Assembly: GCA_037146775.1 (NCBI GenBank)
Contig: JBAWWL010000003.1
Location: forward strand, 2,334-66,333
Direction of reading: 5' to 3'
Length of the DNA stretch: 64,000 nucleotides
Source: Candidatus Omnitrophota bacterium
Lineage (GTDB): Bacteria > Omnitrophota > Gorgyraeia > Duberdicusellales > 4484-171
Every line of letters begins with the position of its first letter. The stretch's first letter is position 1. Positions 4,158-64,000 of the stretch are shown here, in pieces. The notes under the pieces are model-generated. The model saw only the letters and a list, made by a program, of their open reading frames with translations. It was not told the origin of the DNA and did not search any database. A program made the position numbers and the translations under genes.

Positions 4158-5549
4158 ATGGCAGATAATACTATTAAAAAAACAGGCAGGGTGGTTGCGG
4201 TTCAGGGGCCGGTAGTCGACGTTAAATTCGAAAAAGCGGAAGAAATTCCCGGCATATATCAAGTTATTATTACCAAAACATTTGACGGTAAGGAGCTTCT
4301 TTTGGAAGTAACCGAGCATCTCGAGGGAAACATCGCCCGCTGCGTCGCCTTGGCCTCAACGCTTAATTTGCAGCGAAACCAGCCGGCGGTTGCGCAGGGT
4401 AGTCCTATTAGTATTCCGGTGGGCAAAAGTTTATTTTCAAGAATTATCAACGTTGTCGGCGAGCCTATTGATTCGCAGGGCCCTATTGTTACCAGCGAAA
4501 GAATGCCCATACGAAAAGATATGACTTCATTTTATCTTAACCCGGACAGGCACAGCCTGGAAAAGCTCGAAATTTTAGAAACCGGCATAAAAATTATGGA
4601 TTTATTGTTTCCAATGGTCAAGGGAAGCAAGTCGGGAATACTTGGCGGCGCGGCTTTAGGCAAAAGTATTCTCACTTTGGAATTGATACATAATGTTACG
4701 CAAAAGAGCAAGGGCGTCTGTGTATTTACCGGAGCCGGCGAGCGTATCCGAGAAGGCAACGAATTATATAATGAGTTCAAGAAACAAGGTTTACTGGACA
4801 GAGTTATTATGGCATTTGGCCAGATGAATGAACCTCCGGGCGCGCGGTATGAAATTGTTTTAACCGGAGTGACCGTGGCTGAATATCTGCAAAGCCAGAA
4901 TCAGGACGTTCTCTTTTTTGTGGATAATGTTTACCGATTTGTACAGGCAGGAGCTGAGATTTCCACGCTCTTAGGCAGGGTACCCTCCGAGATGGGGTAT
5001 CAGCCAACTCTGGCCTCGGAAGTCGGTGAATTCCAGGAACGGATTCGTTCAAGAGAATCAGGTTCGATCACTGCCGTAGAGGCGATCTATGTTCCGGCTG
5101 ATGACTTAACCGATCCGGCAGTCGTCACTATATTTAGTTACTTGGATGCGGTGTTAGTGCTTTCGCGAGAACGAATACAGCTGGGGTTATATCCGGCCAT
5201 TGACCCGCTCTTGTCAAGCTGTTCCAATCTCGATCCTGAGATTGTAGGGGAAAGGCATTTCATTATAGCTCAGGAAGTAGTCAAAATTTTAACCAAATAT
5301 GAGGAGTTGAAGAAAATAGTGGCGGTTATCGGCGTGGATGAACTTTCCAAAGTCGATCGCATTCTTTATGAGCGGGCCAGAAAGCTGCAGAATTTTCTTA
5401 CCCAGCCGTTTTTTACGGCGGAAGTCTATACCGGTAAGAAAGGAGAATATGTAACTATAAAAGAAACCCTAGACGGCTGCGAGAAAATTATTTCCGGAAG
5501 AGCCGACACTATTAAGGAAGAAGATTTGTATTTGATAGGAAAACTTTAA
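4158..5549 (+). CDS. atpD: F1-type ATPase beta subunit
   Basis: 463 aa. [16 protein letters not shown]...[23 protein letters not shown]...[43 protein letters not shown]...[10 protein letters not shown]...DELSKVD parallels the E. coli beta catalytic core. The P-loop is the variant GGAALGKS. Confidence 0.88.
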
Positions 5550-9716: not shown

Positions 9717-10704
9717 GGTTCACCGCCGCAGCAGCATCCTTATTATATCGCTATGGTTGATTTTCCTTCTGGCATTCTTTACTGTGGTCATAGCCGGCAT
9801 TATCAGGCAGAAGCTGATTGTCGCAAACCGTATCGATAAAGGGTTTAAGGCGTATGCGGCAGCTCTTGCCGCTATCGAAGCAGCGAAAGCGGTCGTCGGG
9901 CAGAGTGACGAAGGAAACCGTCTCACCAATCTTTATCGTTGGTATAATGATGAACGTATATTTAAAGATAAACATCTCGGCGAAGCTTTTTATAACGTAG
10001 CCTACACCACAGACACAGGCGCATCAGCCACAAAGACTGTCTATGGGTTGATAGATGAAGAACGCAAAATTAACCTTAATAAAGCGCCGCAAGAAGTGCT
10101 TTTTAGATTATTCAGCCAAGAGGGTATTGTGGAGGCAAAGCAAATTGCCGCTTGCGTAATAGACTGGCGGGATAAAGATTCGCAAATTACCGATGCAGGC
10201 GCAGAGAATACGTATTATAATAGTCTCAAGGATCCTTATAGTGCGCGCAACGCAGATCTGAAGTCTATCTATGAACTGTTGTTGGTAAACGGTATGACTA
10301 AGAAAGACTTCGACGTGATAAAAGAATATGTGACGGTATATGGCGGCGGCGCGGTTAATGTGAATACTGCCTCGAAGGAAGTGTTGGCTGCCTTGGGGTT
10401 TGGGCCTTCGCTTATAGCCAAGATAATAGAATACAGGAACGGTCCTGACGGCGAGCTATTTACGGCGGATGATCGGATGTTTGAAAATGCTTCGAGCATT
10501 CCTGCCGTGCTACAGGCTTTTACGAAATTGTCTCCGGATGAAGAAAGCCAATTGCAGGATGCGTTGAAAAGTAATACACTGGGGATAGAAGCAGCATATT
10601 TCGAAGTAAAAGCTTTTGGTTCAACCACGGGTAAACAAGAAACCGCGTACGTTGATTGTATTATATCGAAAACCGGGAAGGTTTTATTTTGGCACGAGCA
10701 ATAA
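9661..10704 (+). CDS. GspK-like minor pseudopilin with helix-hairpin-helix repeats
   Basis: 347 aa. N-terminal transmembrane helix; two HhH-like segments (NLNKAPQEVLFRLF..., VNVNTASKEVLAALGFGPSLIAKIIEYR) typical of GspK. The true start is likely the internal Met near 9685. Confidence 0.6.
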   Translation: MMLKQKIIMHYPGLFLFPKVHRRSSILIISLWLIFLLAFFTVVIAGIIRQKLIVANRIDKGFKAYAAALAAIEAAKAVVGQSDEGNRLTNLYRWYNDERIFKDKHLGEAFYNVAYTTDTGASATKTVYGLIDEERKINLNKAPQEVLFRLFSQEGIVEAKQIAACVIDWRDKDSQITDAGAENTYYNSLKDPYSARNADLKSIYELLLVNGMTKKDFDVIKEYVTVYGGGAVNVNTASKEVLAALGFGPSLIAKIIEYRNGPDGELFTADDRMFENASSIPAVLQAFTKLSPDEESQLQDALKSNTLGIEAAYFEVKAFGSTTGKQETAYVDCIISKTGKVLFWHEQ

Positions 10705-10722
10705 TATAGAGCGGCTAGCGAT

Positions 10723-12177
10723 ATGAAAAAAATAACCTCATTTTTATCCAAACCAAAAAGAGTTGCGCTTGAGCTTGGCACGAGCTGGGTTAAGATTGCG
10801 CAAGCACAGCTTTTAGATCAACAGTATAAGATTGTGGGCTTAAGCGTAAAACGAATGCTTGATATTAAGACCACCCTGGCCCCTGCCATGAAGCAATGGT
10901 TTAGGGAAATGGATATTACCGGTAACGAAGTTACTCTAATTATTCCCCGACATTTTGTTACCATAAAAAATCTGGAGTTGCCCTCGACGGATACGCGCGA
11001 GATTAAGGAAATCATCGATTTACAGATTTCAAAACAAACACCTTATTCCCGCGACGAAATAGTATTTGGTTTTAAGGTTTTACAGGGGAACACCGAAGGT
11101 TATTCGAACGTCTTGCTTGCGATTGTCAAAAAAAATATCATCGAAGAACGCCTCAAGCTTTTAAGAGAATTGCAGCTGGAAGCGGGCTGTATTCGTATCA
11201 GCTCAGAAATGGCATACCAATATTTTTTGCTGTTTAGCCGTGCCAAGCATCTCAAGGAATCAACGGCGTTGATTATCGATATTGACGAAGAGTCTAGCGA
11301 AGTATTCGTACTTAGCGCGGGCGAGCCGGTTTTTTCCCGTAATATTTTTATTGGCAGAGAATTTATCTTAAAGAATCCAGACGACTGGGAACGTAAATTT
11401 TCCGAAGAGATTAAGAGGCTGTTCGAGCTTTATCATCACGAAGGCCACCGCGCTGCGGTTGAACGCGTATTAATTACCGGCGCCACGGATGGGCTGGCGG
11501 ATGTGTTGACGTTTGTTCGCCTTTCGCTTAATTTACCTGTTGAAAAAATAGACATACTAGACATACCTATATGTATGCCCGAAGAAGCCTCTTCTATCAA
11601 AGTAATGTCTCGTTCGGTTTCTCTTTCTTCCGTTATCGGCGCCTTATGCTCACAAGAAAAAGCTCATATCAATCTTCTTCCGAGGGAAATCGAAATAGAA
11701 CGGCAGGTAAAATATAAAGCAAAATATCTTACTATTACAGGTATTTTTAGTGTCGCGGTCCTTATTTTACTTTCGGCTTTGTTGCTTGAGAAATTCTACA
11801 CAAAGAAACATTATTATGAACTGTTACACGCTAAATTTATCAAGTCAGAAACCGAAGCCGGCGATATTGAGTCCATTAAAGTAAAGGCAAATACCATCCG
11901 TAAATATCTCGATAAGAAGAATTCCGTAGTCAACATTTTGCAGGAATTGTTTAAAATTACGCCGGACCAGATTTATTTTCGCGACATTCATTATGTCAAG
12001 AATAAAGAAGTGATTTTGACCGGTTCTTCGGAGGCAATGTCCGACGTATTCAAATTCGTTACCATACTGGAGGCTCTTGAGTGTTTTGAGAATATTAAAA
12101 CAAATTATGCGACCAAGAAGCAAAAAAATGGTAAAGACGTGGTTGATTTCGAACTGATTTGTCCTTTGAAGGAATAA
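10723..12177 (+). CDS. PilM-PilN fusion protein (type IV pilus alignment subcomplex)
   Basis: 484 aa. Actin-like PilM region (about residues 1-310), followed by the conserved INLLP motif, a single transmembrane helix (ITGIFSVAVLILLSALLL) and a periplasmic PilN-like tail. Confidence 0.65.
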   Translation: MKKITSFLSKPKRVALELGTSWVKIAQAQLLDQQYKIVGLSVKRMLDIKTTLAPAMKQWFREMDITGNEVTLIIPRHFVTIKNLELPSTDTREIKEIIDLQISKQTPYSRDEIVFGFKVLQGNTEGYSNVLLAIVKKNIIEERLKLLRELQLEAGCIRISSEMAYQYFLLFSRAKHLKESTALIIDIDEESSEVFVLSAGEPVFSRNIFIGREFILKNPDDWERKFSEEIKRLFELYHHEGHRAAVERVLITGATDGLADVLTFVRLSLNLPVEKIDILDIPICMPEEASSIKVMSRSVSLSSVIGALCSQEKAHINLLPREIEIERQVKYKAKYLTITGIFSVAVLILLSALLLEKFYTKKHYYELLHAKFIKSETEAGDIESIKVKANTIRKYLDKKNSVVNILQELFKITPDQIYFRDIHYVKNKEVILTGSSEAMSDVFKFVTILEALECFENIKTNYATKKQKNGKDVVDFELICPLKE

Positions 12178-25394: not shown

Positions 25395-26402
25395 ATGCCG
25401 CAATTACGCAAAGATCCTATATTAGGAAGATGGGTTATTATTTCGACCGAACGGGCGAAGCGTCCTAAGGATTTTCCTCGTGCAGAATCCGCCCCTGCGG
25501 AAAAAGAATGCCCTTTTTGCAAAGGAAAAGAAAACTTAACTCCCGCAGAAGTTTTTTCCATAAGAGACCCGCAAGGGAATTGGCGGGTACGCGTAATACC
25601 CAGTAAAAAACCCTTTGTAAGATCGGATGTCGAGTTTTGGAAAAAAGGTAAAGGTCCCTATGATTCAATTAACGGCGTGGGCAGCCACGAGGTGGTCATC
25701 GAAACCCCCGACCATATTAATAACATGGCGGATTTGGACGAAAACCTTATAAAAGATGTATTTAACGCCTATTGCAATCGTTTTAGAGAATTGGGTAAAG
25801 ACGGGCGCATTAAATACGTGCTTGCGTTTAAAAATTACGGTTGGGATGCCGGCGGCGGCAGAGTGCGGCATTCACGCTCGCAGCTTATCGCGACACCGGT
25901 CAATCTTAAAAGGGTAAAAGAAGAGCTTGAAGGCTCCAAGGCTTACTATCATTACCACGAGCGGTGCGTTTTTTGCGATATTATCAGGCAAGAACTGCAG
26001 ACAGGGGAACGGGTAGTATTGGATCAGGACGGTTTTATCGTTCTCGTTCCGTTTGCTCCGCGTTTTCCTTTTGAGGTGTGGATACTTCCCAAAGACCATT
26101 CTCCGGATTTTTATAATGTTTGCGAAAAAAATGTCGAAGGGTTAGCCAGGGTGGTACAGAAAACATTGCGTAAGATAAAGGTGTTACTTAACGACCCGGC
26201 GTATAATTACGTCATTCACACCGCTCCGTTTCGCAGGCCATACCCGGGTTATTGGTCAACCATAGAAGAGGACTATCATTGGCATATTGAAATTACGCCT
26301 CGCCTGACCAGAGTCGCGGGGTTTGAATGGGGAAGCGGTTTCTATATCTGCCCATCATTACCGGAAGAATCGGCAAAGTTTTTACGTGAAACCAACGTAT
26401 AA
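25395..26402 (+). CDS. GalT-like (HIT superfamily) nucleotidyltransferase paralog 1, with Arg at the nucleophilic His position
   Basis: 335 aa. N-terminal DPILGRWVII, zinc CxxC (CPFC), C-terminal HWHIEITPRLTRVAGFEWGSGFY. The active-site region reads RHSRSQ instead of HxHxQ. Confidence 0.7.
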   Translation: MPQLRKDPILGRWVIISTERAKRPKDFPRAESAPAEKECPFCKGKENLTPAEVFSIRDPQGNWRVRVIPSKKPFVRSDVEFWKKGKGPYDSINGVGSHEVVIETPDHINNMADLDENLIKDVFNAYCNRFRELGKDGRIKYVLAFKNYGWDAGGGRVRHSRSQLIATPVNLKRVKEELEGSKAYYHYHERCVFCDIIRQELQTGERVVLDQDGFIVLVPFAPRFPFEVWILPKDHSPDFYNVCEKNVEGLARVVQKTLRKIKVLLNDPAYNYVIHTAPFRRPYPGYWSTIEEDYHWHIEITPRLTRVAGFEWGSGFYICPSLPEESAKFLRETNV

Positions 26403-26409
26403 ATATGAT

Positions 26410-26544
26410 AAACTCTAAATCCGAAATCCTAAACTCTAAACAAACCTCAAATCATAAACTAAAAATCCCAAACATTTGTTTTGAGTTTGGAGTTTTGTAT
26501 TTCGAGTTTGTTTAGGATTTAGATTTTAGTGTTTAGAGTTTCAT
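26410..26544. repeat. Imperfect palindrome of about 135 bp built from CTAAA/TTTAG-type units
   Basis: Left arm aaactctaaatccgaaatcctaaactctaaacaaacc... Right arm ...ggtttgtttaggatttagattttagtgtttagagttt. The reverse complement of the right arm matches the left arm at roughly 75%. Confidence 0.6.
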
Positions 26545-26560
26545 AAAATAATAATATATT

Positions 26561-27562
26561 ATGCCTGACATCAGAAAAGATCCTATTGTTGCGCGCTGGG
26601 TAGTTGTTAACGTGGAAGAGCCATATCTTCCCAAAGACTATGCGGTTGCGCCGCCGGTATGGAAGGGAGAAAAAGATTGCGCTTTTTGCTATGGCAATGA
26701 ACATCTTACTCCTCCGGAAATCGAGGCGATATCGGAAACCTGGCGCGCTCCCAATACGCCGGGATGGAAAGTAAGAGTGGTGCCGAATAAATTTCCGGCA
26801 CTGCGCATTGAGGGAGACTTAGATAAGCATGCCCTAGGCATATATGATATGTCTAATGGTGTAGGGGCGCACGAAGTAATTATAGACAGTCCGCATCACT
26901 ATAAAGGTATTCCGGAATTCACCGATACCGAAACGGAATACATGCTTAAAGCATATCGCAGCCGTACGCTTGATTTACGAAAAGACAGGCGATTTAAATA
27001 TCTGCTCATTTTTAAAAATGTTGGGGTTGAGGCAGGAGCTTCCCTTGAACACGGACATTCACAGTTGATCGCTCTTCCCATGGTGCCCAAAAATGTTTCT
27101 GACGAAGTCAGGGGCGCACAGCATTTTTATGAATACAGAGAACGTTGTATATTTTGCGATATGATCGCGTATGAACAGGAGGACGGTAAGGAAAGAATTG
27201 TTACCGAGAACGAACATTTTGTGGCGTTTTGTCCTCTTTCCGGCAGGTTCTCGTTTGAAACGTGGATTGTTCCCAAGGAACACTCGATGGATTTTGGGTC
27301 GATCGACGACAACCATATTAGAACGCTTGCTAAAATTCTTAGAGACACCTTGGGAAGGCTTAAAAAGGTTTTGGGAGACCACCCCTATAACTATATTATC
27401 CATACCTCTCCCATTAACACCGACGCACACTTTTCATACCATTGGCATATTGAAATTATGCCTAAATTAAGCCGTGTGGCCGGTTTTGAATGGGGAAGCG
27501 GTTTTTATGTCGTGTCTACTCCGCCCGAAGTGGCTGCAAAATCTTTGAAAGAAGCAGTGTAG
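26561..27562 (+). CDS. GalT-like (HIT superfamily) hexose-1-phosphate nucleotidyltransferase/phosphorylase paralog 2
   Basis: 333 aa. DPIVARWVVV, CAFC zinc site, intact EHGHSQ (HxHxQ) active site, YHWHIEIMPKLSRVAGFEWGSGFY. Confidence 0.75.
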   Translation: MPDIRKDPIVARWVVVNVEEPYLPKDYAVAPPVWKGEKDCAFCYGNEHLTPPEIEAISETWRAPNTPGWKVRVVPNKFPALRIEGDLDKHALGIYDMSNGVGAHEVIIDSPHHYKGIPEFTDTETEYMLKAYRSRTLDLRKDRRFKYLLIFKNVGVEAGASLEHGHSQLIALPMVPKNVSDEVRGAQHFYEYRERCIFCDMIAYEQEDGKERIVTENEHFVAFCPLSGRFSFETWIVPKEHSMDFGSIDDNHIRTLAKILRDTLGRLKKVLGDHPYNYIIHTSPINTDAHFSYHWHIEIMPKLSRVAGFEWGSGFYVVSTPPEVAAKSLKEAV

Positions 27563-27618: not shown

Positions 27619-28707
<1,089 letters not shown>

Positions 28708-28716
28708 CGCAGACAA

Positions 28717-28751
28717 CAGAGGACAGATAACTTCTGACCTCTGACATCTGA
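28717..28751. repeat. Copy A of the CAGAGG...CTTCTGACCTCTGACATCTGA intergenic repeat
   Basis: cagaggacagataacttctgacctctgacatctga. Internally palindromic (CAGAGGaCAGA / TTCTGaCCTCTG). Related copies lie at 62868-62902 and 63295-63333. Confidence 0.6.
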
Positions 28752-28773
28752 GCTTTGAATAATAAGGAGAAGC

Positions 28774-29955
28774 ATGGCCAAACTTACAGTAAAGGACATG
28801 GATTTTAAAGGTAAAAAAGTAATTATGCGCGTGGATTTTAATGTGCCGCTCGATAAGCAGGCAAACATCACCGACGATACGCGCATCAAAGAAGCATTAC
28901 CTACTATTACATACGTTTTGGACAAAGGCGCAAAAAAAGTGATTTTAATGAGCCATTTAGGAAGGCCGGAAGGTAAAGTCGTTGAGAACTTACGCTTGAC
29001 GCCGGTCGCGAAAAGATTAGCCGAGCTTCTGGGTCAGGATGTGGAAAAAATGGATGATTGCGTGGGTAGTGACGTCAAAAAGAAAATCGACGCAAGCAGT
29101 AAAAAAGTAATTCTTTTAGAAAATTTACGTTTCCATCCGGAAGAAGAAGCCGGGGACGATCAATTTGCCAAACAACTTGCTTCTTTGGCTGAAATATATG
29201 TGAACGATGCTTTCGGAACTGCGCATCGCGCCCATGCCTCCACCACCGTTATTGCAAAGTTTTTGCCTTCTTGCCTGGGATTCTTGATGGAAAAAGAGGT
29301 AACGCATCTTTCGTGCGCGCTTTCGCCGGAAAAACCCTATGTAGTTATTTTAGGCGGCGCGAAAGTGTCCGACAAAATAGACGTGATCTCTAACTTAATG
29401 GAAAAAGCAGACAAGATTTTAATCGGCGGCGCAATGGCATATACATTCTTGAAAAGTAAAGGCGAAGCTGTCGGCAGTTCGCGTGTTGAGGCTGATAAGC
29501 TTGATGTGGCGAAAGACATATTGAAGAAAGCGGAAAGTAAAAAAGTAAAAATTATCCTGCCCATAGATCATGTGGTGATAGATAATTTAGAAAAGCCGAC
29601 CGCAAAAAAAACGGTCAAAGTAATCCCGCAGGGTTTCTTGGGTGTTGACGTGGGGCCTGAGACAATCGCATTATTTAAGAAAGAACTTAGCGACGCCAAA
29701 ACTATTCTTTGGAATGGGCCGCTCGGCATCTTTGAGAAAGACGATTATGCAAAGGGGACAAAAGATATCGCCGAGTATCTCGCAACACTGAAAGCCGCTA
29801 CGGTTATCGTTGGCGGAGGAGATTCGGCTTCGGCGGCAAAGAAATTTGGCGTGGCTGCGAAATTGTCGCATGTATCTACCGGCGGTGGAGCATCGCTTGA
29901 ATTCTTGGAAGGAAAGCAGTTACCTGGGATCGCGATTATCTCCGATAAAAAATAG
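28774..29955 (+). CDS. pgk: Phosphoglycerate kinase
   Basis: 393 aa; hinge and nucleotide-binding motifs GGGASLE, IGGGDSA. Confidence 0.92.
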
Positions 29956-39996: not shown

Positions 39997-40803
39997 ATGA
40001 AACTGAAAGAATGGATTACGCAAAATAAAAATGTCTTTATCGAGGGCGACTTACGATTTCTTCTAAAACACGTCCTTTCCAACCGTATCGCGGTTTATGA
40101 CGGACAGGAGATTACCGAAAACCAATTATGTTTTCTTGAAAACATAAAAAATCAATATGCGCAGGGCCTGCCACTGGGATATCTTTTAGGTAAAGAAGAA
40201 TTTTTTGGTTTGGAATTAAACGTTGGCCCCGGGGCGCTTCTCCCGCGCAAGGAAACAGAGTTAATCGTCGAACGGGCTATTGCCTGTATCGCACAGCATG
40301 GTTTACGTCGTGTATTGGATGTCGGTTGTGGCTCCGGTAATATTTCCCTTGCAATAAAAAAAAGATTTAATCAGGATGTAAAAGTTTTTTCTGCGGATAT
40401 CAGCCCGGAGGCGCTCGGGTTAGCCAAGGCTAATTTTACGAACCATAAACTACCCAGCCATTTTATCCAGACGGATATTTTTGCAGGATTTTTGCCTCGC
40501 ACGTTTGATTTGATTATTTCCAATCCCCCCTACGTAGCCAACGATGAAATAGAAGGGAGTTTGTGCCATGAGCCGCGAATTGCTTTAGAGGCTTCCGATA
40601 AGGGTTTTTCTTTTATCGAAAAGATAGTCACTACAGGCGCTGAATATTTGAAAGGGCGTGGTTATCTTATCTTGGAAATAGGGTATAATCATAAGGAACG
40701 GTTAGAAAGGTTGCTTGCAAAGCTATATAGCTATGAAATAATAGAGTGGATAAAAGATTATGACGGGAATTGGAGAGGAATAGTTATAAAATTAACGCAT
40801 TAA
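39997..40803 (+). CDS. prmC: Release factor glutamine N5-methyltransferase
   Basis: 268 aa; SAM motif VLDVGCGSGNISL; NPPY motif (ISNPPYV). Confidence 0.85.
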   Translation: MKLKEWITQNKNVFIEGDLRFLLKHVLSNRIAVYDGQEITENQLCFLENIKNQYAQGLPLGYLLGKEEFFGLELNVGPGALLPRKETELIVERAIACIAQHGLRRVLDVGCGSGNISLAIKKRFNQDVKVFSADISPEALGLAKANFTNHKLPSHFIQTDIFAGFLPRTFDLIISNPPYVANDEIEGSLCHEPRIALEASDKGFSFIEKIVTTGAEYLKGRGYLILEIGYNHKERLERLLAKLYSYEIIEWIKDYDGNWRGIVIKLTH

Positions 40804-40880
40804 CGGATTAAATGATTATATGTTAGATTGTCAGATCATGCAATGCGTTAATTCTTTAATTCGTTAATTTTTTAATCGAC

Positions 40881-50541: not shown

Positions 50542-50616
50542 CGGGGCGTGGCTCAGTCCGGCTAGAGCACTTGGTTCGGGACCAAGGAGTCGGAGGTTCA
50601 AATCCTCTCGCCCCGA
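50542..50616 (+). tRNA. tRNA-Pro (anticodon CGG)
   Basis: I folded it by hand. 7-bp acceptor stem CGGGGCG/CGCCCCG with a C1:G72 pair and A73 discriminator (typical of bacterial tRNA-Pro). D-stem GCTC/GAGC. Anticodon stem CTTGG/CCAAG with loop TTCGGGA. T-stem GGAGG/CCTCT with loop TTCAAAT. No encoded CCA. Confidence 0.85.
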
Positions 50617-56102: not shown

Positions 56103-58871
56103 ATGAGCCATTTCAATCTGCTAAAAAATAGAATTCAAACCAAAAAAGCCAAGCTGTGTGTTATTGGCCTGGGGTACGTGGGTCTTCCTTTGGCTTTAGC
56201 GTTCAGCAAGAAAGGCTATCTTGTCTACGGTTTAGACAATAACGTTTCCCGCATCGAACGTCTGAAGAAAGGCGAACGGTATATTTTGGATTTTGAACCC
56301 CGAGAAGCTCTCGCATTAATTAAAGCCGGCAGATTTATACCTACCACCGAAAGTAGAGTTATCCAGAATTGTGACGCGGTGATTGTCTGCGTTCCTACGC
56401 CGTTACGTAAGGTAAAGATGCCTGATGTTTCTTATATTATTGATGCCAGTAAAACCATTAAAGAGCATGTGCGAGTGCCGCAGTTAATTATTTTAGAAAG
56501 CACTTCTTATCCTACTACGACCAGAGACGTAGTTTTGCCGATTCTAGAAAAAAATGGCCTTAAGGAAGGAAAGGATTTTTTTCTTTGTTTTTCTCCCGAG
56601 CGGGTGAACCCCGGCGATAAAAAATTTCCCCTGATAAAAGTTCCTAAGGTCGTTGGCGGGATTTCACCTCAATCTACGGAACTTGCGAAAACGCTCTATT
56701 CAAAGATCATAAAGAAAATTTTTTGTGTCTCAAGCGCCGAGGCAGCCGAAACAGCAAAACTTTTAGAAAATACATTTCGTTTGGTTAACATTGCCTTGAT
56801 AAACGAGTTTGCTATCGTGTGTCAGAAGTTAGGTATAAATGTGTGGGAGGTTATTGAAGCGGCAAAAACCAAACCATTTGGTTTTATGCCTTTTTATCCC
56901 GGCCCCGGTCTTGGTGGCCATTGCTTAGACGGTAAAGAAGTTATATTTAGCGATAATGGCAAAGGCATTGAAACAAAGACAATAGATTCATTAACAGAAA
57001 GTATCCGTAATGATCCCCTGTCTTTGAAGAAAAAAATAAATGGAGTTGAATATCTTAAACCGGCTCCGCGTTATCGAATGCTTACTTTTGATATAACTGC
57101 CAAAAAAGCTGTTTTTAAACCTATCGAGATGTTTTCCAAGCGCAAAACAGAGGATGATTTATTTAAAATAACCACCAGCGATAACCGGAATATTACTGTA
57201 ACGCATGGCCATCCGATGTTTATTTTTACGGAGGACGATTTGGAAATAAAGTTTGCCAGAGATTTAAAAATAGGAGACAGAATCCCGTTTGCTTTAAAAA
57301 CCGATTATGAAATACAAACACAAAATAACGAACCCTTAAAAATTGATTTAATTGAATCTATAAAAAACAATCCGCAGCTTATCAGCAAAATAAGAGTTAG
57401 GCAACGTATTGGCTTATGGAATGCCTTTAAAGAGAACATTTATAAAATAAATTTCGATAATGCTAATTATCATGATTATATACGTTATAATTCTTTACCG
57501 CTGACATATTTCTTACGTGCCGAGGCGGATAAACTTTTAAATATAGACCACAAGGATTTATTGCTTTGTTCCGGACGAGGGCCTTCTTATAGCGAAATCC
57601 CAGCAGTTATTGACTTAGATCCCGAATTTTGCAGATTAATAGGCTACTATTTAAGCGAAGGCTGTATCACTGTTGATAAATCTATGCGGGTTAGGTTTTC
57701 TTTTAACAGCTGCGAGAAAGAATATATAGAAGATGTATGTTCTATATTAAAAAATGTCGGTATCAAATATTCTTTATACAATTCCAAACAATGGAAAGCA
57801 TCATGCATAAAAGTATCTTCTAACTTATTTGGTTTTTTATTGAAGAGAATATTAAATTGCGGCAGCAATTGTTATGAGATGAATATACCAGCGCCATTTT
57901 TTAAGCTGAATAAGCAATATAAATGGGAGTTATTGAAAGGTTTATTTAGGGGCGATGGGGGGGTAGATATTGAAACTGGTAAGGCCCATTATATCAAAAA
58001 TGGTAAGCAGTATTACCATAATCGTAATTCAATAGGGATTAACTATTTTTCTTCAAGCAAGGTATTATTCCAGCAAGTAGTGTTTTTGCTGCAAGAGTTT
58101 GGGATAGTCCCTACTTTTAAGAAAAGAGAAGGATTGCTATATATATTTGGGTATAAACAAGCGGAACGCTTCAGGGGTGTTTTCCTGGGTTCAAAAAACA
58201 ACAAAATAGAAACATATTTTGTTAATAACCGCAAAATTATTTCCAATAGAGGATTTAAAGTCCATGAAGGTTTTGGCACGTCAATTATAAAATCTATCAA
58301 ACGCACAAAAGGAGATTATGTTTATTCTGCAGAAGTTAAAGACACCCATACTATAATTACTTCGTATGGTACTATAGTGCATAATTGTATACCGGTAGAT
58401 CCTCTCTATTTATCCTGGAAAGCAAAAAAGTTAGGCTTTAAAACAAAAATGATTGATTTGGCGTCGTATGTAAATCGCTTTATGCCCGGCTATGTTATCG
58501 AAAGGGTTGAAGCGTTATTGAAAGAAAAAGGCATTGCCATAAGCCAGGCCCGCATTTTAATTTTAGGCGTTACCTACAAGAAAGACACCAAAGACATCCG
58601 CGAATCGCCCGCGTTAGAAATCATTGAGGGCCTAAAAACAAAGAAAACAAAAGTTGATTTTTATGACCCTCTTATCCCGTACCTTAAAATAGACGGCATT
58701 AATTTAAATGGCATTTCGCTTACTAAAGACAATCTAAAAAAATATGATTGTTTAATCGTTGTCGCCGACCATTCAAGCGTTGATTATGAATTTATCAGGA
58801 AAAATTCAAAACTAGTTTTCGATACACGCAATGTTTACAAAACCAACAAAGAAAGGGTGGTGAGATTATGA
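56103..58871 (+). CDS. Intein-containing nucleotide-sugar dehydrogenase (WecC/TviB/UDP-ManNAc-DH-like extein of about 434 aa plus a 488-aa intein)
   Basis: N-extein (56103-56921) carries GLGYVGLPLA Rossmann and ...GPGLGGH. C-extein starts CIPVDPLYLSWKAK..., completing the catalytic GGHC-IPxD motif. Confidence 0.85.
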   Translation: MSHFNLLKNRIQTKKAKLCVIGLGYVGLPLALAFSKKGYLVYGLDNNVSRIERLKKGERYILDFEPREALALIKAGRFIPTTESRVIQNCDAVIVCVPTPLRKVKMPDVSYIIDASKTIKEHVRVPQLIILESTSYPTTTRDVVLPILEKNGLKEGKDFFLCFSPERVNPGDKKFPLIKVPKVVGGISPQSTELAKTLYSKIIKKIFCVSSAEAAETAKLLENTFRLVNIALINEFAIVCQKLGINVWEVIEAAKTKPFGFMPFYPGPGLGGHCLDGKEVIFSDNGKGIETKTIDSLTESIRNDPLSLKKKINGVEYLKPAPRYRMLTFDITAKKAVFKPIEMFSKRKTEDDLFKITTSDNRNITVTHGHPMFIFTEDDLEIKFARDLKIGDRIPFALKTDYEIQTQNNEPLKIDLIESIKNNPQLISKIRVRQRIGLWNAFKENIYKINFDNANYHDYIRYNSLPLTYFLRAEADKLLNIDHKDLLLCSGRGPSYSEIPAVIDLDPEFCRLIGYYLSEGCITVDKSMRVRFSFNSCEKEYIEDVCSILKNVGIKYSLYNSKQWKASCIKVSSNLFGFLLKRILNCGSNCYEMNIPAPFFKLNKQYKWELLKGLFRGDGGVDIETGKAHYIKNGKQYYHNRNSIGINYFSSSKVLFQQVVFLLQEFGIVPTFKKREGLLYIFGYKQAERFRGVFLGSKNNKIETYFVNNRKIISNRGFKVHEGFGTSIIKSIKRTKGDYVYSAEVKDTHTIITSYGTIVHNCIPVDPLYLSWKAKKLGFKTKMIDLASYVNRFMPGYVIERVEALLKEKGIAISQARILILGVTYKKDTKDIRESPALEIIEGLKTKKTKVDFYDPLIPYLKIDGINLNGISLTKDNLKKYDCLIVVADHSSVDYEFIRKNSKLVFDTRNVYKTNKERVVRL
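56922..58385 (+). mobile_element. Full-length intein with LAGLIDADG homing-endonuclease domain
   Basis: Block A CLDGKEVIF (Cys1); block B TVTHGH; LAGLIDADG motifs LIGYYLSEGCI and LLKGLFRGDGGV; blocks F/G DYVYSAEVKDTHTIITSYGTIVHN ending His-Asn, with the +1 residue Cys. Confidence 0.85.
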
Positions 58872-61935: not shown

Positions 61936-62892
61936 ATGAAAAACTTAAAAAATAAACGAATTTTAGTTACTGGCGGCGCTGGATTTATTGGCTCACACAT
62001 TGTAGACAGGCTCGTTAAGGAAGGTGCCAAAGTAACGGTGCTGGATAACTTGTTGTCAGGTAAATTAAAAAATATAGAGCAGCATTTAAAGAAAATAAAA
62101 TTTATCCAGAAAGATTTACGTGACGATTTGGCCCTGGATGAGGCTTTGGACGGTGTAGAATTTATTTCACATCAGGCCGCCTTGCGTAGCGTCCCCAAGT
62201 CGATATCCAGGCCCCTCGAATACCACGATGTTAATGTTACCGCAACGCTAAAACTTTTTCTTAAGGCAAAAGAAAAAGGCGTAAAACGCATAGGTTTTGC
62301 CTCCAGCAGCTCGGTTTATGGAGAGCGTTTTGATTTCCCGGAAAAAGAAACCGATTATCCCAAGCCTATATCGCCCTATGCTGCCACCAAGCTTCTTTGC
62401 GAGCATTATGCCTACCTTTTTAGCCAACAATACAAACTGGGGGTGGTGGGTTTACGTTATTTTAATGTATATGGCCCCAAGCAGTCTCTTGATGACGAAT
62501 ATGCGGTAGTTATCCCTAAATTTATCGCTTGTTTATTGAAAGGAGAAAAACCGCCTATTTATGGCGATGGTGAACAAGAAAGAGATTTTACCTATGTGGA
62601 AAACGTAGTAGAGGCGAATATCTCAGCGCTTCTGCAACCTAATATTGAAGGTGAAATATTTAATATAGGTAACGGCTCTCCTAATACAGTGAACGGGTTA
62701 TTGGAATCTTTAAACCAGATTATGGGTAAAAATATCGCCGCCAGTTATCAACCGCCACGGCAAGGAGATGTACGTAAAACCCACGCTGATATAAGTAAAG
62801 CAAAAAAACTTCTTAAATGGCAACCAAAAATTGATTTTACCGAAGGTTTGAGGAGAGCAGTGGATTGGTTTAGGGAGACAGAGGTCAGATGA
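61936..62892 (+). CDS. NAD-dependent nucleotide-sugar epimerase/dehydratase (GalE/WbpP-like)
   Basis: 318 aa; [10 protein letters not shown]; YAATK catalytic motif. Confidence 0.8.
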   Translation: MKNLKNKRILVTGGAGFIGSHIVDRLVKEGAKVTVLDNLLSGKLKNIEQHLKKIKFIQKDLRDDLALDEALDGVEFISHQAALRSVPKSISRPLEYHDVNVTATLKLFLKAKEKGVKRIGFASSSSVYGERFDFPEKETDYPKPISPYAATKLLCEHYAYLFSQQYKLGVVGLRYFNVYGPKQSLDDEYAVVIPKFIACLLKGEKPPIYGDGEQERDFTYVENVVEANISALLQPNIEGEIFNIGNGSPNTVNGLLESLNQIMGKNIAASYQPPRQGDVRKTHADISKAKKLLKWQPKIDFTEGLRRAVDWFRETEVR

Positions 62893-62902
62893 CAGAGGAC
62901 AG
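62868..62902. repeat. Copy B of the CAGAGGTCAGA/TCTGACCTCTG repeat (overlaps the epimerase stop codon)
   Basis: acagaggtcagatgacagaggacagaagtcagagg. Its reverse complement matches copy C (63295-63333) over an 18-bp core of the type TCTGACTTCTGnCCTCTG. Confidence 0.6.
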
Positions 62903-62923
62903 AAGTCAGAGGGTAGAGGAGAG

Positions 62924-63319
62924 ATGGGTATAAAAACGATAAAAGATTTGAAAGTATACGAGATTGCTTATAAATTAGCTATGGAGATATTTGAAATAAC
63001 AAAGAAGTTTCCCAAAGAAGAGACGTATTCGTTGACTGATCAGATAAGACGTTCTTCTCGGTCAGTAGCCATAAATATCCGTGAAGGGTATGCTAAACGA
63101 AAATATGAGCAAGTATTTATCAGGCATCTAAATGATTCATTAGGTTCAGGCGAAGAAACAAGGGGATGGTTAAGCTTTGCGAAAGATTGCAAATATATTA
63201 CAGAAGTTTTATATAATAAATTAGACGTTAGGTATGATGAGCTCTGTGCCATGCTTTATTCTCTCATGAATAGCTGGGAGAGCCCTTCTACCGTTGAGGT
63301 TCTGACTTCTGACCTCTGA
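62924..63319 (+). CDS. Four-helix-bundle protein (23S rRNA intervening-sequence protein family)
   Basis: 131 aa; KDLKVYEIAYKLAMEIFEITKKFPKEETYSLTDQIRRSSRSVAINIREGY matches the family's signature layout. Confidence 0.75.
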   Translation: MGIKTIKDLKVYEIAYKLAMEIFEITKKFPKEETYSLTDQIRRSSRSVAINIREGYAKRKYEQVFIRHLNDSLGSGEETRGWLSFAKDCKYITEVLYNKLDVRYDELCAMLYSLMNSWESPSTVEVLTSDL

Positions 63320-63333
63320 TTTCTGACATCTGA
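63295..63333. repeat. Copy C of the CTTCTGACCTCTGA...TCTGACATCTGA repeat (contains the stop codon of the four-helix-bundle ORF)
   Basis: gaggttctgacttctgacctctgatttctgacatctga; the same as copy A at 28731-28751 plus a 7-bp duplication (tttctga). Confidence 0.6.
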
Positions 63334-63390
63334 TATTCAAATGCACTCACGACTACATACTCACTACTACATACTATATACTATATACTC

Positions 63391-64000
63391 ATGACTATCC
63401 TCATTACCGGTGGTGCCGGATTTATTGGTTCTCATCTATGCCGAAGTTTGCTTCGTCGTAGCGATCATGTAATTTGCGTTGATAATTTTATCACTGGTTC
63501 CAGAGAAAACATCAAAGAATTTCTGGATAACAAAAATTTTCGGCTTATTGAGCATGATGTCTCAAATGCGCTTTACGTAGACGAAAAGCTTGATTGGGTA
63601 TTGCATCTTGCCTCCATCGCTTCACCTAAAGATTACCTGGGTTATCCCATTAAAACCTTAAAGTCCGGTCTCCTGGGCACCTATAACTGTTTGGGGCTGG
63701 CCAAAGCCAAACAAGCAAAGTTCTTCTTAGCCTCAACTTCTGAAATTTATGGCGATCCGCTTGTTCATCCGCAAACAGAAAGCTACTGGGGTAATGTTAA
63801 TTCTATAGGTGTACGCAGCTGCTACGATGAAAGTAAGCGTGGCGCAGAGGCTCTTACCTATGCGTACCAACGTCAGCATAATGTAGATGTTAGAGTAATA
63901 CGTATTTTTAATACTTATGGGCCAAACATGCAATTAGACGATGGCAGGGTAGTTTCCAATTTCATTGTTCAGGCGCTTAGAGGCGAAGATTTAACTGTCT
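63391..64000 (+). CDS. UDP-glucuronate decarboxylase (UXS-like), 5' partial, runs off the window
   Basis: [17 protein letters not shown]...; UXS-specific [34 protein letters not shown]. No stop codon before position 64000. Confidence 0.8.

Follow-up and report, generated by a model that had tools for sequence, protein, structure and literature searches.

Organization of the element at the epimerase-UXS junction

The 64,000-nt window analysed here comes from a metagenome-assembled genome (MAG) of Candidatus Omnitrophota (GCA_037146775.1, contig JBAWWL010000003.1). All coordinates refer to this window, and the L-numbers (L001, L002 and so on) denote other loci that were compared with it, including metagenomic ones. 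The subject is a small element at 62876-63336, in which a gene for a four-helix-bundle (4HB) protein of the S23p family (PF05635) is bracketed by two inverted arrays of degenerate heptamers. The element is located between a sugar epimerase gene and a UXS gene, and is probably a counterpart, in an mRNA operon, of the intervening sequences (IVSs) of 23S rRNA. The features of the junction are as follows.

61936-62892, + strand: epimerase gene, NAD-dependent sugar epimerase/dehydratase (list of open reading frames (ORFs); PF01370, E-value 7e-60)
62876-62924, + strand: 5' arm, purine-rich tandem heptamer array of about 7 units (Tandem Repeats Finder (TRF): period 7, 6.9 copies, 62877-62924)
62908-62923, + strand: purine-rich, Shine-Dalgarno-like stretch AGAGGGTAGAGGAGAG, which closes the 5' arm on its inner side and abuts the ATG (reading of the sequence)
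62924-63319, + strand: 4HB cargo gene of 131 aa, S23p / 23S_rRNA_IVP / Avd-like (PF05635, TIGR02436)
63296-63336, + strand: 3' arm, pyrimidine-rich tandem heptamer array (TRF: period 7, 4.9 copies, 63300-63333)
63345-63397, + strand: second heptamer array (ACTACAT/ACTCACG), unrelated to the arms, adjoining the cassette and reaching into the UXS start codon at 63391 (TRF, sequence)
63391-64000, continuing past the window end, + strand: UXS, UDP-glucuronate decarboxylase-like gene (PF01370, PF16363)

The original prediction, which was made from the letters alone, described a 131-aa 4HB ORF between two repeats, the upstream one overlapping the epimerase stop codon and the downstream one supplying the stop codon of the 4HB gene. 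This anatomy was recovered in full. The epimerase stop (TGA, 62890-62892) lies within the repeat that starts at 62876/62877, together with the final five codons of the gene, and the last codons and the stop of the 4HB gene (TGA, 63317-63319) are encoded by the 3' arm. The two repeats had also been called imperfect reverse complements of each other. They are indeed 84% complementary, but they are tandem arrays of degenerate heptamers (period 7 by TRF) rather than classical terminal inverted repeats. The 5' arm consists of the units GACAGAG, GTCAGAT, GACAGAG, GACAGAA, GTCAGAG, GGTAGAG and GAGAGAT, and the 3' arm of TTCTGAC, TTCTGAC, CTCTGAT, TTCTGAC and ATCTGAT. The latter places a TGA in all three frames (63303, 63310, 63317, 63324 and 63331). 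Within the 5' arm, the stretch AGAGGGTAGAGGAGAG next to the ATG may act as a ribosome-binding-like site.

The motif TCTGACCTCTGA, allowing at most two mismatches, has 17 matches in the window versus 2.2 expected, and none of 100 shuffles reached 17. Its strong matches are confined to 62878-62917, 63301-63333 and 28716-28758, and 28733 and 63308 are the sole positions of its exact 12-mer in the window. Over 11 kb the window region is matched without a difference by an independent Logan assembly, so that the arrangement is no assembly artefact. The GC content of the 4HB ORF is 35.5%, versus 42.9% for the window. Every ORF of at least 200 aa in the window (1-64000) lies on the + strand, which is an unusually long co-directional run. 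For the second array at 63345-63397, a complementary partner array was not found nearby. The complete UXS gene is present in L001 at 10468-11415, and the called genes of L001 all encode LptD, sugar-nucleotide or polysaccharide enzymes.

The 4HB protein

The 4HB ORF matches PF05635 (23S_rRNA_IVP) with an E-value of 9e-34 and 116.3 bits (cut-off 33.8), and residues 7-112 cover profile positions 1-105 of 106; the match to TIGR02436 reaches 109.8 bits (cut-off 24). The family is described by the motif GxxRxxxSxxxNxxE (Zhang & Ye 2013, PMC3936711). Around this motif the window protein reads LTDQIRRSSRSVAINIREG, in which R-x3-S-x3-N-x2-E is present and the leading G is replaced. By sequence the protein also resembles the structures 2gsc and 2rld in the PDB (2gsc_A and 2rld_A, E-value about 5e-7). 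The 2GSC protein is a four-helix bundle that assembles as a homopentamer.

The protein has over 7,900 homologues, of which the best 120 share 72-100% identity with it (72-83% outside the window's own cluster) and are named only 'four helix bundle protein'. Between copies, the proportion of nonsynonymous differences (pN) is 0.12-0.25, versus a saturated proportion of synonymous differences (pS) of 0.6-0.9, which indicates that the protein is under purifying selection. About 9% of the 4HB copies in the fetched metagenomic loci (see below) are broken or pseudogenes. The C-terminus (...NFSD[LIF]*) is encoded by the array, and the variable lengths of the proteins (121-153 aa, with one outlier of 219 aa) are explained by this. 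PADLOC gave no defence-system match.

The arms and the ORF form one unit in unrelated contexts

Eighty metagenomic loci with 4HB relatives of 54-85% identity were fetched, and the window region 62400-64000 was compared with them by BLASTN. In about 25 unrelated contexts the alignments start at 62876-62886 and end at 63318-63336. Since the homology starts and ends at the arms in all of these contexts, the arms and the ORF constitute one unit. Nearly all the fetched loci have a purine-rich heptamer array just 5' of the ORF and a complementary pyrimidine-rich array that begins in its last codons. Cargo-less hairpins of the same family also lie near the cassettes.

The energy of the RNA duplex formed by the flanks was tried as a measure of this arrangement and set aside. 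It discriminates poorly, since purine/pyrimidine flanks pair even when shuffled (mean -42 kcal/mol, versus -65 kcal/mol for the real flanks). It was replaced by inverted-repeat alignment scores of the flanks, compared with those of neighbouring genes. The median score is 14 for 68 4HB genes versus 7 for 174 neighbouring long ORFs (Mann-Whitney p 1e-25), and 42 of the 68 4HB loci exceed the 95th percentile of the controls. Complementary pairs of period-7 arrays are either at most 60 nt apart (17 cargo-less hairpins) or 301-600 nt apart, and 56 of the 58 pairs at 301-600 nt enclose a 4HB gene. When the loci were chosen by their epimerase, and were thus unbiased for 4HB genes, a period-7/8 array lay at most 100 nt from 7 of the 12 4HB genes, versus 0.96 expected (0 of 2000 random placements). 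It might be supposed that the arms are low-complexity purine/pyrimidine tracts beside an ordinary small gene, or a product of mis-assembly, and the pairing of shuffled flanks would agree with this. Such an explanation is refuted by the excess of the motif (17 versus 2.2), the identical Logan assembly, the shared boundaries of homology in unrelated contexts, the 68-locus comparison and the loci chosen by epimerase.

In more distant 4HB relatives the heptamer differs, and both arms switch together (for example, AAGTAAG/CTTACTT, GAAGATG/CATCTTC, GGACGAT/ATCGTCC and GCAAGAA/TTCTTGC). The same design was found in a Halobacteriota MAG, in Saprospiraceae, and on Nostoc and Leptolyngbya plasmids with the arms GGAGCAG/CTGCTCC and GGAGATN. 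In Xanthomonas campestris (L166:2929-3372), the orthologue of XCC0516, which is the crystallised family member of PDB entry 2GSC, lies between accB and accC and is bracketed by four copies of GGGAATC and by ATTCCCC-type arrays. This cassette folds with a z-score of -8.7, and its arms are exactly the genome-wide GGGAATC repeat of Xanthomonas.

A metagenomic gvp-like gas-vesicle cluster (L100:4498-5150) has CAGA-type hairpins in most of its intergenic gaps. One of them (about 5090-5150) lies in frame within a 422-aa ORF and is translated as ...RGQKSEVRSQTSVFCSLSSV...

Predicted pairing of the arms

The pairing segments of the two arms (62879-62910 and 63301-63332) are each 32 nt long and are separated by 390 nt. 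The stem has 27 Watson-Crick pairs, one G-U pair and four mismatches, which recur about every 7 nt. Pairing of the arms is predicted by the minimum-free-energy fold and by the centroid fold of a 491-nt segment, and 27 of the 32 stem positions have a pair probability of 0.89 or more, in the 491-nt as well as in a 1.5-kb context. The energy of the arm duplex is -47.9 kcal/mol. No Rfam family matched the arms; the only match in the window was a tRNA.

Within the CAGA family, the motif, the inverted orientation and a rhythm of six paired positions followed by one mismatch are conserved. The mismatches of this rhythm are mostly A.A here, and in Xanthomonas the rhythm appears as a repeated ((((((. 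pattern. In the cassettes of this family (L082-L161), the 5' units are mostly CAGA[A/G]GA and the 3' units are of the TCTGAC type; a mismatch at every seventh position and one TGA per unit therefore follow.

Transcription and proposed mechanism

The neighbouring genes share the strand of the 4HB gene in a ratio of 50 to 2 upstream and of 51 to 5 downstream. At the element, no site resembling a promoter or a terminator was found, and an intrinsic terminator (GC-rich stem plus U tract) was found neither at the arms, where the sequence after the 3' arm is ATATTCAAATG, nor at the hairpin 28709-28751 described below. Given this co-orientation and the absence of a promoter or terminator of its own, the element appears to be reliant on read-through transcription, like an IVS in an rRNA operon, and is probably co-transcribed with its host operon. 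Moreover, the CAGA core of the arms is kept although the synonymous sites of the gene are saturated, and the arms are therefore either constrained or continually regenerated.

We interpret 62876-63336 as an IVS-type stem-loop element in an mRNA operon, which would be co-transcribed, would have its arms paired in the RNA, and would probably be cut by RNase III; the probability of this interpretation may be put at roughly 0.68. The proposed selfish element would have three parts, namely a purine array of GACAGAN units, the 4HB (S23p/PF05635) ORF, and the inverse pyrimidine array of NTCTGAC units. It would be transcribed along with the sugar-nucleotide operon in the order epimerase, element and UXS, and the arms of the RNA would pair to a duplex of about 32 bp, closing a loop of about 390 nt that holds the whole ORF. 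This duplex would be a substrate for RNase III, and once the stem was cut, the cistron upstream would be parted from the one downstream and a small 4HB mRNA would be freed, its ends paired. The arms would also supply the stop codon of the truncated epimerase, the stop codon of the 4HB gene (TGA in three frames) and the Shine-Dalgarno-like stretch before the ATG. The hairpins that carry no ORF (28709-28751, and the junction of L003) would be cargo-less forms of the element.

Several observations weigh against this interpretation. Cleavage by RNase III would here be an extrapolation from the Coxiella IVS, where it has been demonstrated. The stem in the window is imperfect, with only 27 of 32 positions in Watson-Crick pairs and a mismatch about every 7 nt, whereas the Coxiella stem is nearly perfect. 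When the order of the heptamer units is permuted, the complementarity is kept in the CAGA family (23 pairs in the window versus 23.7 expected), so that position-specific covariation, which would prove a helix, is absent. Such covariation was rejected as support for the stem; the arms co-vary only at the level of heptamer families. The motif and the way it is oriented are conserved, and a role at the DNA level or in protein binding would account for this equally well. The G:U mismatches outnumber the A:C mismatches on the sense strand (204 versus 106), which fits a role of the RNA but could result from base composition alone. The 4HB genes of L070 and L165 have direct rather than inverted arrays, and that of L170 has no arrays. 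Furthermore, none of the 40 closest relatives scanned is located in rRNA, and this clade may therefore differ in its biology from the classical IVSs.

The epimerase-UXS junction in relatives

Compared through the epimerase, species-representative genomes assign the window to Candidatus Omnitrophota, the best relatives sharing only 74-77% identity in this protein. The junction was found in these states.

L002, L005 and L006: genes directly adjacent, no array
L003: gene-less hairpin of CAGA-type arrays (-37.5 kcal/mol, z-score -6.3)
L011: hairpin of a different heptamer (TAGAAGG)
L004: a different, probably decayed PF05635 gene with the arms GTTCAGA/TCTGAAC
L103 (metagenome): the same kind of cassette as in the window

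Since the states differ among the relatives, the element is not a conserved resident of the junction, and the junction has been either repeatedly occupied or repeatedly freed by loss of the element. The epimerase of L103 is more distant (64%) than those of the relatives that have no cassette. In every filled junction the final 8-10 epimerase codons, past a conserved Trp-Phe, are taken over by the array, which also provides the stop codon, whereas in relatives without the element the C-terminal tail past this 'WF' is different and longer. The PF05635 gene of L004 (10977-11450) has a TGA at the expected Trp of the N-terminal 'VW' motif and its profile match misses the first 17 positions. Although probably a pseudogene, it is still closed by its arms. 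It was considered as an orthologue of the window gene and rejected, as BLASTP gave no alignment between the two proteins.

The suggestion that the element is a miniature insertion cassette thus holds in part. It is a discrete and evolutionarily mobile unit, but its nature as a transposon in the strict sense is unproven. The alternative outcome, a ubiquitous repeat unrelated to 4HB genes beside a gene conserved in place, was not found: the repeat is strongly tied to 4HB genes, and the gene is absent from this junction in L002, L005 and L006 and replaced by another 4HB gene in L004.

These results also bear on the view that the unit is a DNA-level mobile element, such as a miniature inverted-repeat transposable element (MITE) or a small transposon. 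Its arrays would be binding sites of the 4HB protein or of a recombinase encoded elsewhere, pairing in the RNA would be incidental, and the hairpins without cargo would represent non-autonomous derivatives. The discrete boundaries, the patchy presence and the independent cassettes at one junction would be expected of such an element, and so would the hairpin of L100 inside an ORF and the same-family hairpins near the cassettes. The CAGA core with its interchangeable units also resembles reiterated binding sites more than a specific helix. Nevertheless, the ends 62876 and 63336 are not flanked by a direct repeat that could represent a target-site duplication, and filled and empty junctions revealed no target motif in common. 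A transposase, reverse transcriptase or integrase was found neither in the unit, in which PF05635 is the only family at full strength, nor in its surroundings, where the neighbours are sugar enzymes. Moreover, the co-orientation with host transcription and the fixed polarity, with purines 5' and pyrimidines 3', are unexpected for a DNA transposon, and the synonymous saturation between copies speaks against recent bursts of transposition. We consider a DNA-level element unlikely, and an IVS-type element acting through its RNA is preferred.

The cargo-less hairpin between gap and pgk

The original prediction noted a near-identical copy of the downstream repeat after gap and took it for a solo or derivative end of the cassette. 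The copy is present, but it is part of a complete two-armed hairpin.

28709-28751, + strand: cargo-less hairpin of the same heptamer family as the arms, CAGACAACAGAGGACAGA-taac-TTCTGACCTCTGACATCTGA (fold, motif matches)

It holds both arms back to back (ACAGAGGACAGA-taac-TTCTGACCTCTGACATCTGA), folds alone at -23.9 kcal/mol with a z-score of -7.1, and lies between gap (27655-28707) and pgk (28774-29955), both of which were confirmed. This hairpin is a form of the element that lacks cargo. The cargo-less hairpins in general may derive from the element or may be its targets.

The position of these hairpins between co-transcribed genes (gap-pgk, L003 and L100) suggests another function, in which they are host-beneficial punctuation of operons, serving as mRNA stabilisers, processing sites or translation insulators in the manner of repetitive extragenic palindromic (REP) sequences and bacterial interspersed mosaic elements (BIMEs). 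The 4HB pentamer would then be a putative RNA- or DNA-binding factor that is autoregulated from its own site. The strong purifying selection on the protein is consistent with this, as are the co-variation of the heptamer family with the 4HB clade and the identity of the arms of the Xanthomonas XCC0516 orthologue with the genome-wide GGGAATC repeat. The 5' arm is also Shine-Dalgarno-like and the 3' arm anti-Shine-Dalgarno-like, with TGA in three frames. However, the protein matches no defence or regulator family, and the element is absent in close relatives with the same operon, and hence dispensable for operon function. In addition, about 9% of the copies are pseudogenes and the Coxiella copy is decaying and apparently untranslated, and on the Nostoc plasmid L169 the other arrays belong to families unlike its 4HB arms. 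A host-beneficial role therefore seems rather improbable, and the IVS-type reading is retained.

A further proposal, which we regard as doubtful, is that heptamer arrays and 4HB genes form one system, in which the 4HB pentamer recognises, maintains or spreads its cognate arrays, comparable to REP-associated tyrosine transposases (RAYTs) and their REPs. It is supported by the Xanthomonas arms, which are the genome-wide repeat, and by the same-family cargo-less hairpins beside the cassettes, and is weakened by the differing arrays of L169 and the array-less 4HB gene of L170. A strict rule that the genome-wide arrays equal the arms of the resident 4HB gene was rejected, as it fails on L169 (ATCAGTT, GATTGCA and AATCTCC versus the arms GCAGRGR). 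The rule holds for X. campestris and for 28709-28751.

Other repeats and features of the window

Between two GalT-like genes (25395-26402 and 26561-27562), another heptamer family forms a hairpin of about 130 nt (26409-26541; arm TAAACTC/AAATCCG versus arm GTTTAGA/GTTTGGA), which has no 4HB gene inside. The arms of the 4HB cassette in L004 resemble this family. Inverted octamer arrays (ATTAACGC/ATTAACGG versus GCGTTAAT/TTAATTCN) are located at 40791-40876, in the gap separating a methyltransferase gene from aroA. Immediately after a tRNA gene (50542-50616) come direct octamer arrays that extend for about 170 nt, up to 50783 (ATTCTTTA, ACATATCA and TAATCCTT), for which an inverted partner was not found; in L088 and L139 a 4HB cassette lies directly 3' of a tRNA end. 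At 56103-58871 (+ strand), a 922-aa UDP-glucose/GDP-mannose dehydrogenase is split by an intein with a LAGLIDADG homing-endonuclease domain (PF14890, PF14528).

Comparison with known systems

The insertion sites of IVSs are helices 9, 25 or 45 of 23S (or 16S) rRNA. The Coxiella burnetii IVS is a 428-nt element in helix 45 with an S23p (PF05635) ORF in its loop (Warrier et al. 2016, PMC4990558), and our comparison is based on the text of that paper rather than on the IVS sequence. The inverted repeats at its ends pair into a stem of 28 bp, and two to three tandem GACAGAT units and one GACAGAA, whose copy number varies among strains, precede the ATG directly. It is cut by both Coxiella and Escherichia coli RNase III; rapid amplification of cDNA ends placed the cleavage mid-stem, the 5' cut falling at the first heptamer. 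Its GC content is about 36%, versus 42.5% for the host, and this copy is decaying and apparently untranslated (PMC4990558). Leptospira is also described as having a 23S IVS of the S23p type (Ralph & McClelland 1993, as cited in PMC4990558).

The window element shares with these IVSs the PF05635 family in the loop, a stem of about 30 bp built from inverted repeats, and GACAGAN heptamers just 5' of the ATG. Like them, it is AT-richer than its host (35-38% versus 43% GC), co-oriented with the host transcript and sporadic. It differs in lying between protein-coding genes, with no rRNA in the window, and in its stem with periodic mismatches. Its ORF is intact and under purifying selection, unlike the decaying Coxiella copy, and cargo-less hairpins occur alongside. 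On this comparison, the window element appears to work like an IVS and to be homologous to it, as a variant that lives in mRNA operons. The 18 such genes found inserted within cas operons (Zhang & Ye 2013, PMC3936711) agree with this habit of hitchhiking in operons. The arms may also be compared with other bacterial repeats.

The short tandemly repeated repetitive (STRR) sequences of cyanobacteria are over-represented heptamer repeats. In X. campestris, 186 GGGAATC arrays with 70 convergent pairs have been reported, and GGGAATC was studied there as a G-quadruplex motif; the repeat GGGGA(T/C)T of Nostoc is treated in the same paper (Rehm et al. 2015, PMC4692102). TAACTGA repeats occur in Beggiatoaceae, Cyanobacteria and Bacteroidetes (MacGregor 2015, PMC4679880), and a Nostoc preprint speculates on an unidentified binding partner of the repeats. 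Like the window arrays, these repeats are tandem heptamers between genes, often in convergent pairs capable of forming stem-loops; they are transcribed and vary in length between relatives. The window arrays differ in being the arms of a gene-bearing unit. Neither PMC4692102 nor PMC4679880 mentions 4HB genes, and the former names neither xcc0516 nor accB. No paper linking heptamer repeats to 4HB genes was found by full-text search, which covers subscription journals poorly, so that an earlier description is possible.

A REPtron is a RAYT gene flanked by inverted REPs, and REPs are also scattered without a gene between the genes of operons. The likeness to REPs, BIMEs and REPtrons is that a gene is bracketed by inverted short repeats which are also scattered, without the gene, in intergenic regions of operons. 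In contrast to the REPtron, the cargo is a 4HB protein, for which we know of no catalytic role, instead of a Y1 (IS200/IS605-like) HUH transposase, and the arms are heptamer arrays instead of single REP hairpins. When the Correia/NEMIS elements of Neisseria or comparable MITEs are transcribed within an operon, RNase III cuts them, and the Rickettsia palindromic elements insert in frame in ORFs. These are also small palindromic insertions in transcribed regions, the in-frame case being comparable to L100, whereas they carry no gene and their arms are unique sequence and not heptamer arrays.

The Avd proteins of diversity-generating retroelements have a homologous four-helix-bundle fold (PF22296, bAvd), and their relation to the 4HB family is discussed in PMC10053308. 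The cargo has a weak match to PF22296 (E-value 1e-6), PF05635 being otherwise its sole Pfam family, and it scores 25.5 bits against the Avd equivalog NF033474, below the cut-off of 80. The window system differs from such retroelements in this score and in having no reverse transcriptase among the called L001 genes, which reach about 10 kb to the 5' side and 5 kb to the 3' side of the 4HB gene; no search was made for template and variable repeats.

Implications

To our knowledge, S23p/PF05635 is a very large family without a known function, and we know of no mechanism for the 23S rRNA IVSs, which have been called selfish for 30 years. The window locus and the approximately 100 related loci examined here show that rRNA is not the only setting of the IVS design, which is a general operon cassette in Omnitrophota, Cyanobacteria, Xanthomonas, Bacteroidota and possibly archaea. 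What is new is an IVS-type 4HB cassette outside rRNA, together with its cargo-less hairpin relatives. For annotation, it should be considered that the arrays rewrite the C-termini of adjoining genes, here those of the epimerase and the 4HB protein.

It is predicted that operon mRNAs are processed by RNase III at such elements, and the accB-XCC0516-accC region of X. campestris, for which the protein structure has already been solved, would be a tractable model. The elements may also help to account for the excess of heptamer repeats in bacterial genomes, which has lacked an explanation. If heptamer arrays and 4HB genes do form one system, this excess (GGGAATC in Xanthomonas, STRR and GGGGATT in cyanobacteria, and TAACTGA in Beggiatoaceae) would be the footprint of IVS-type 4HB elements, and the 23S IVS would be one special landing site among many transcribed hairpins.

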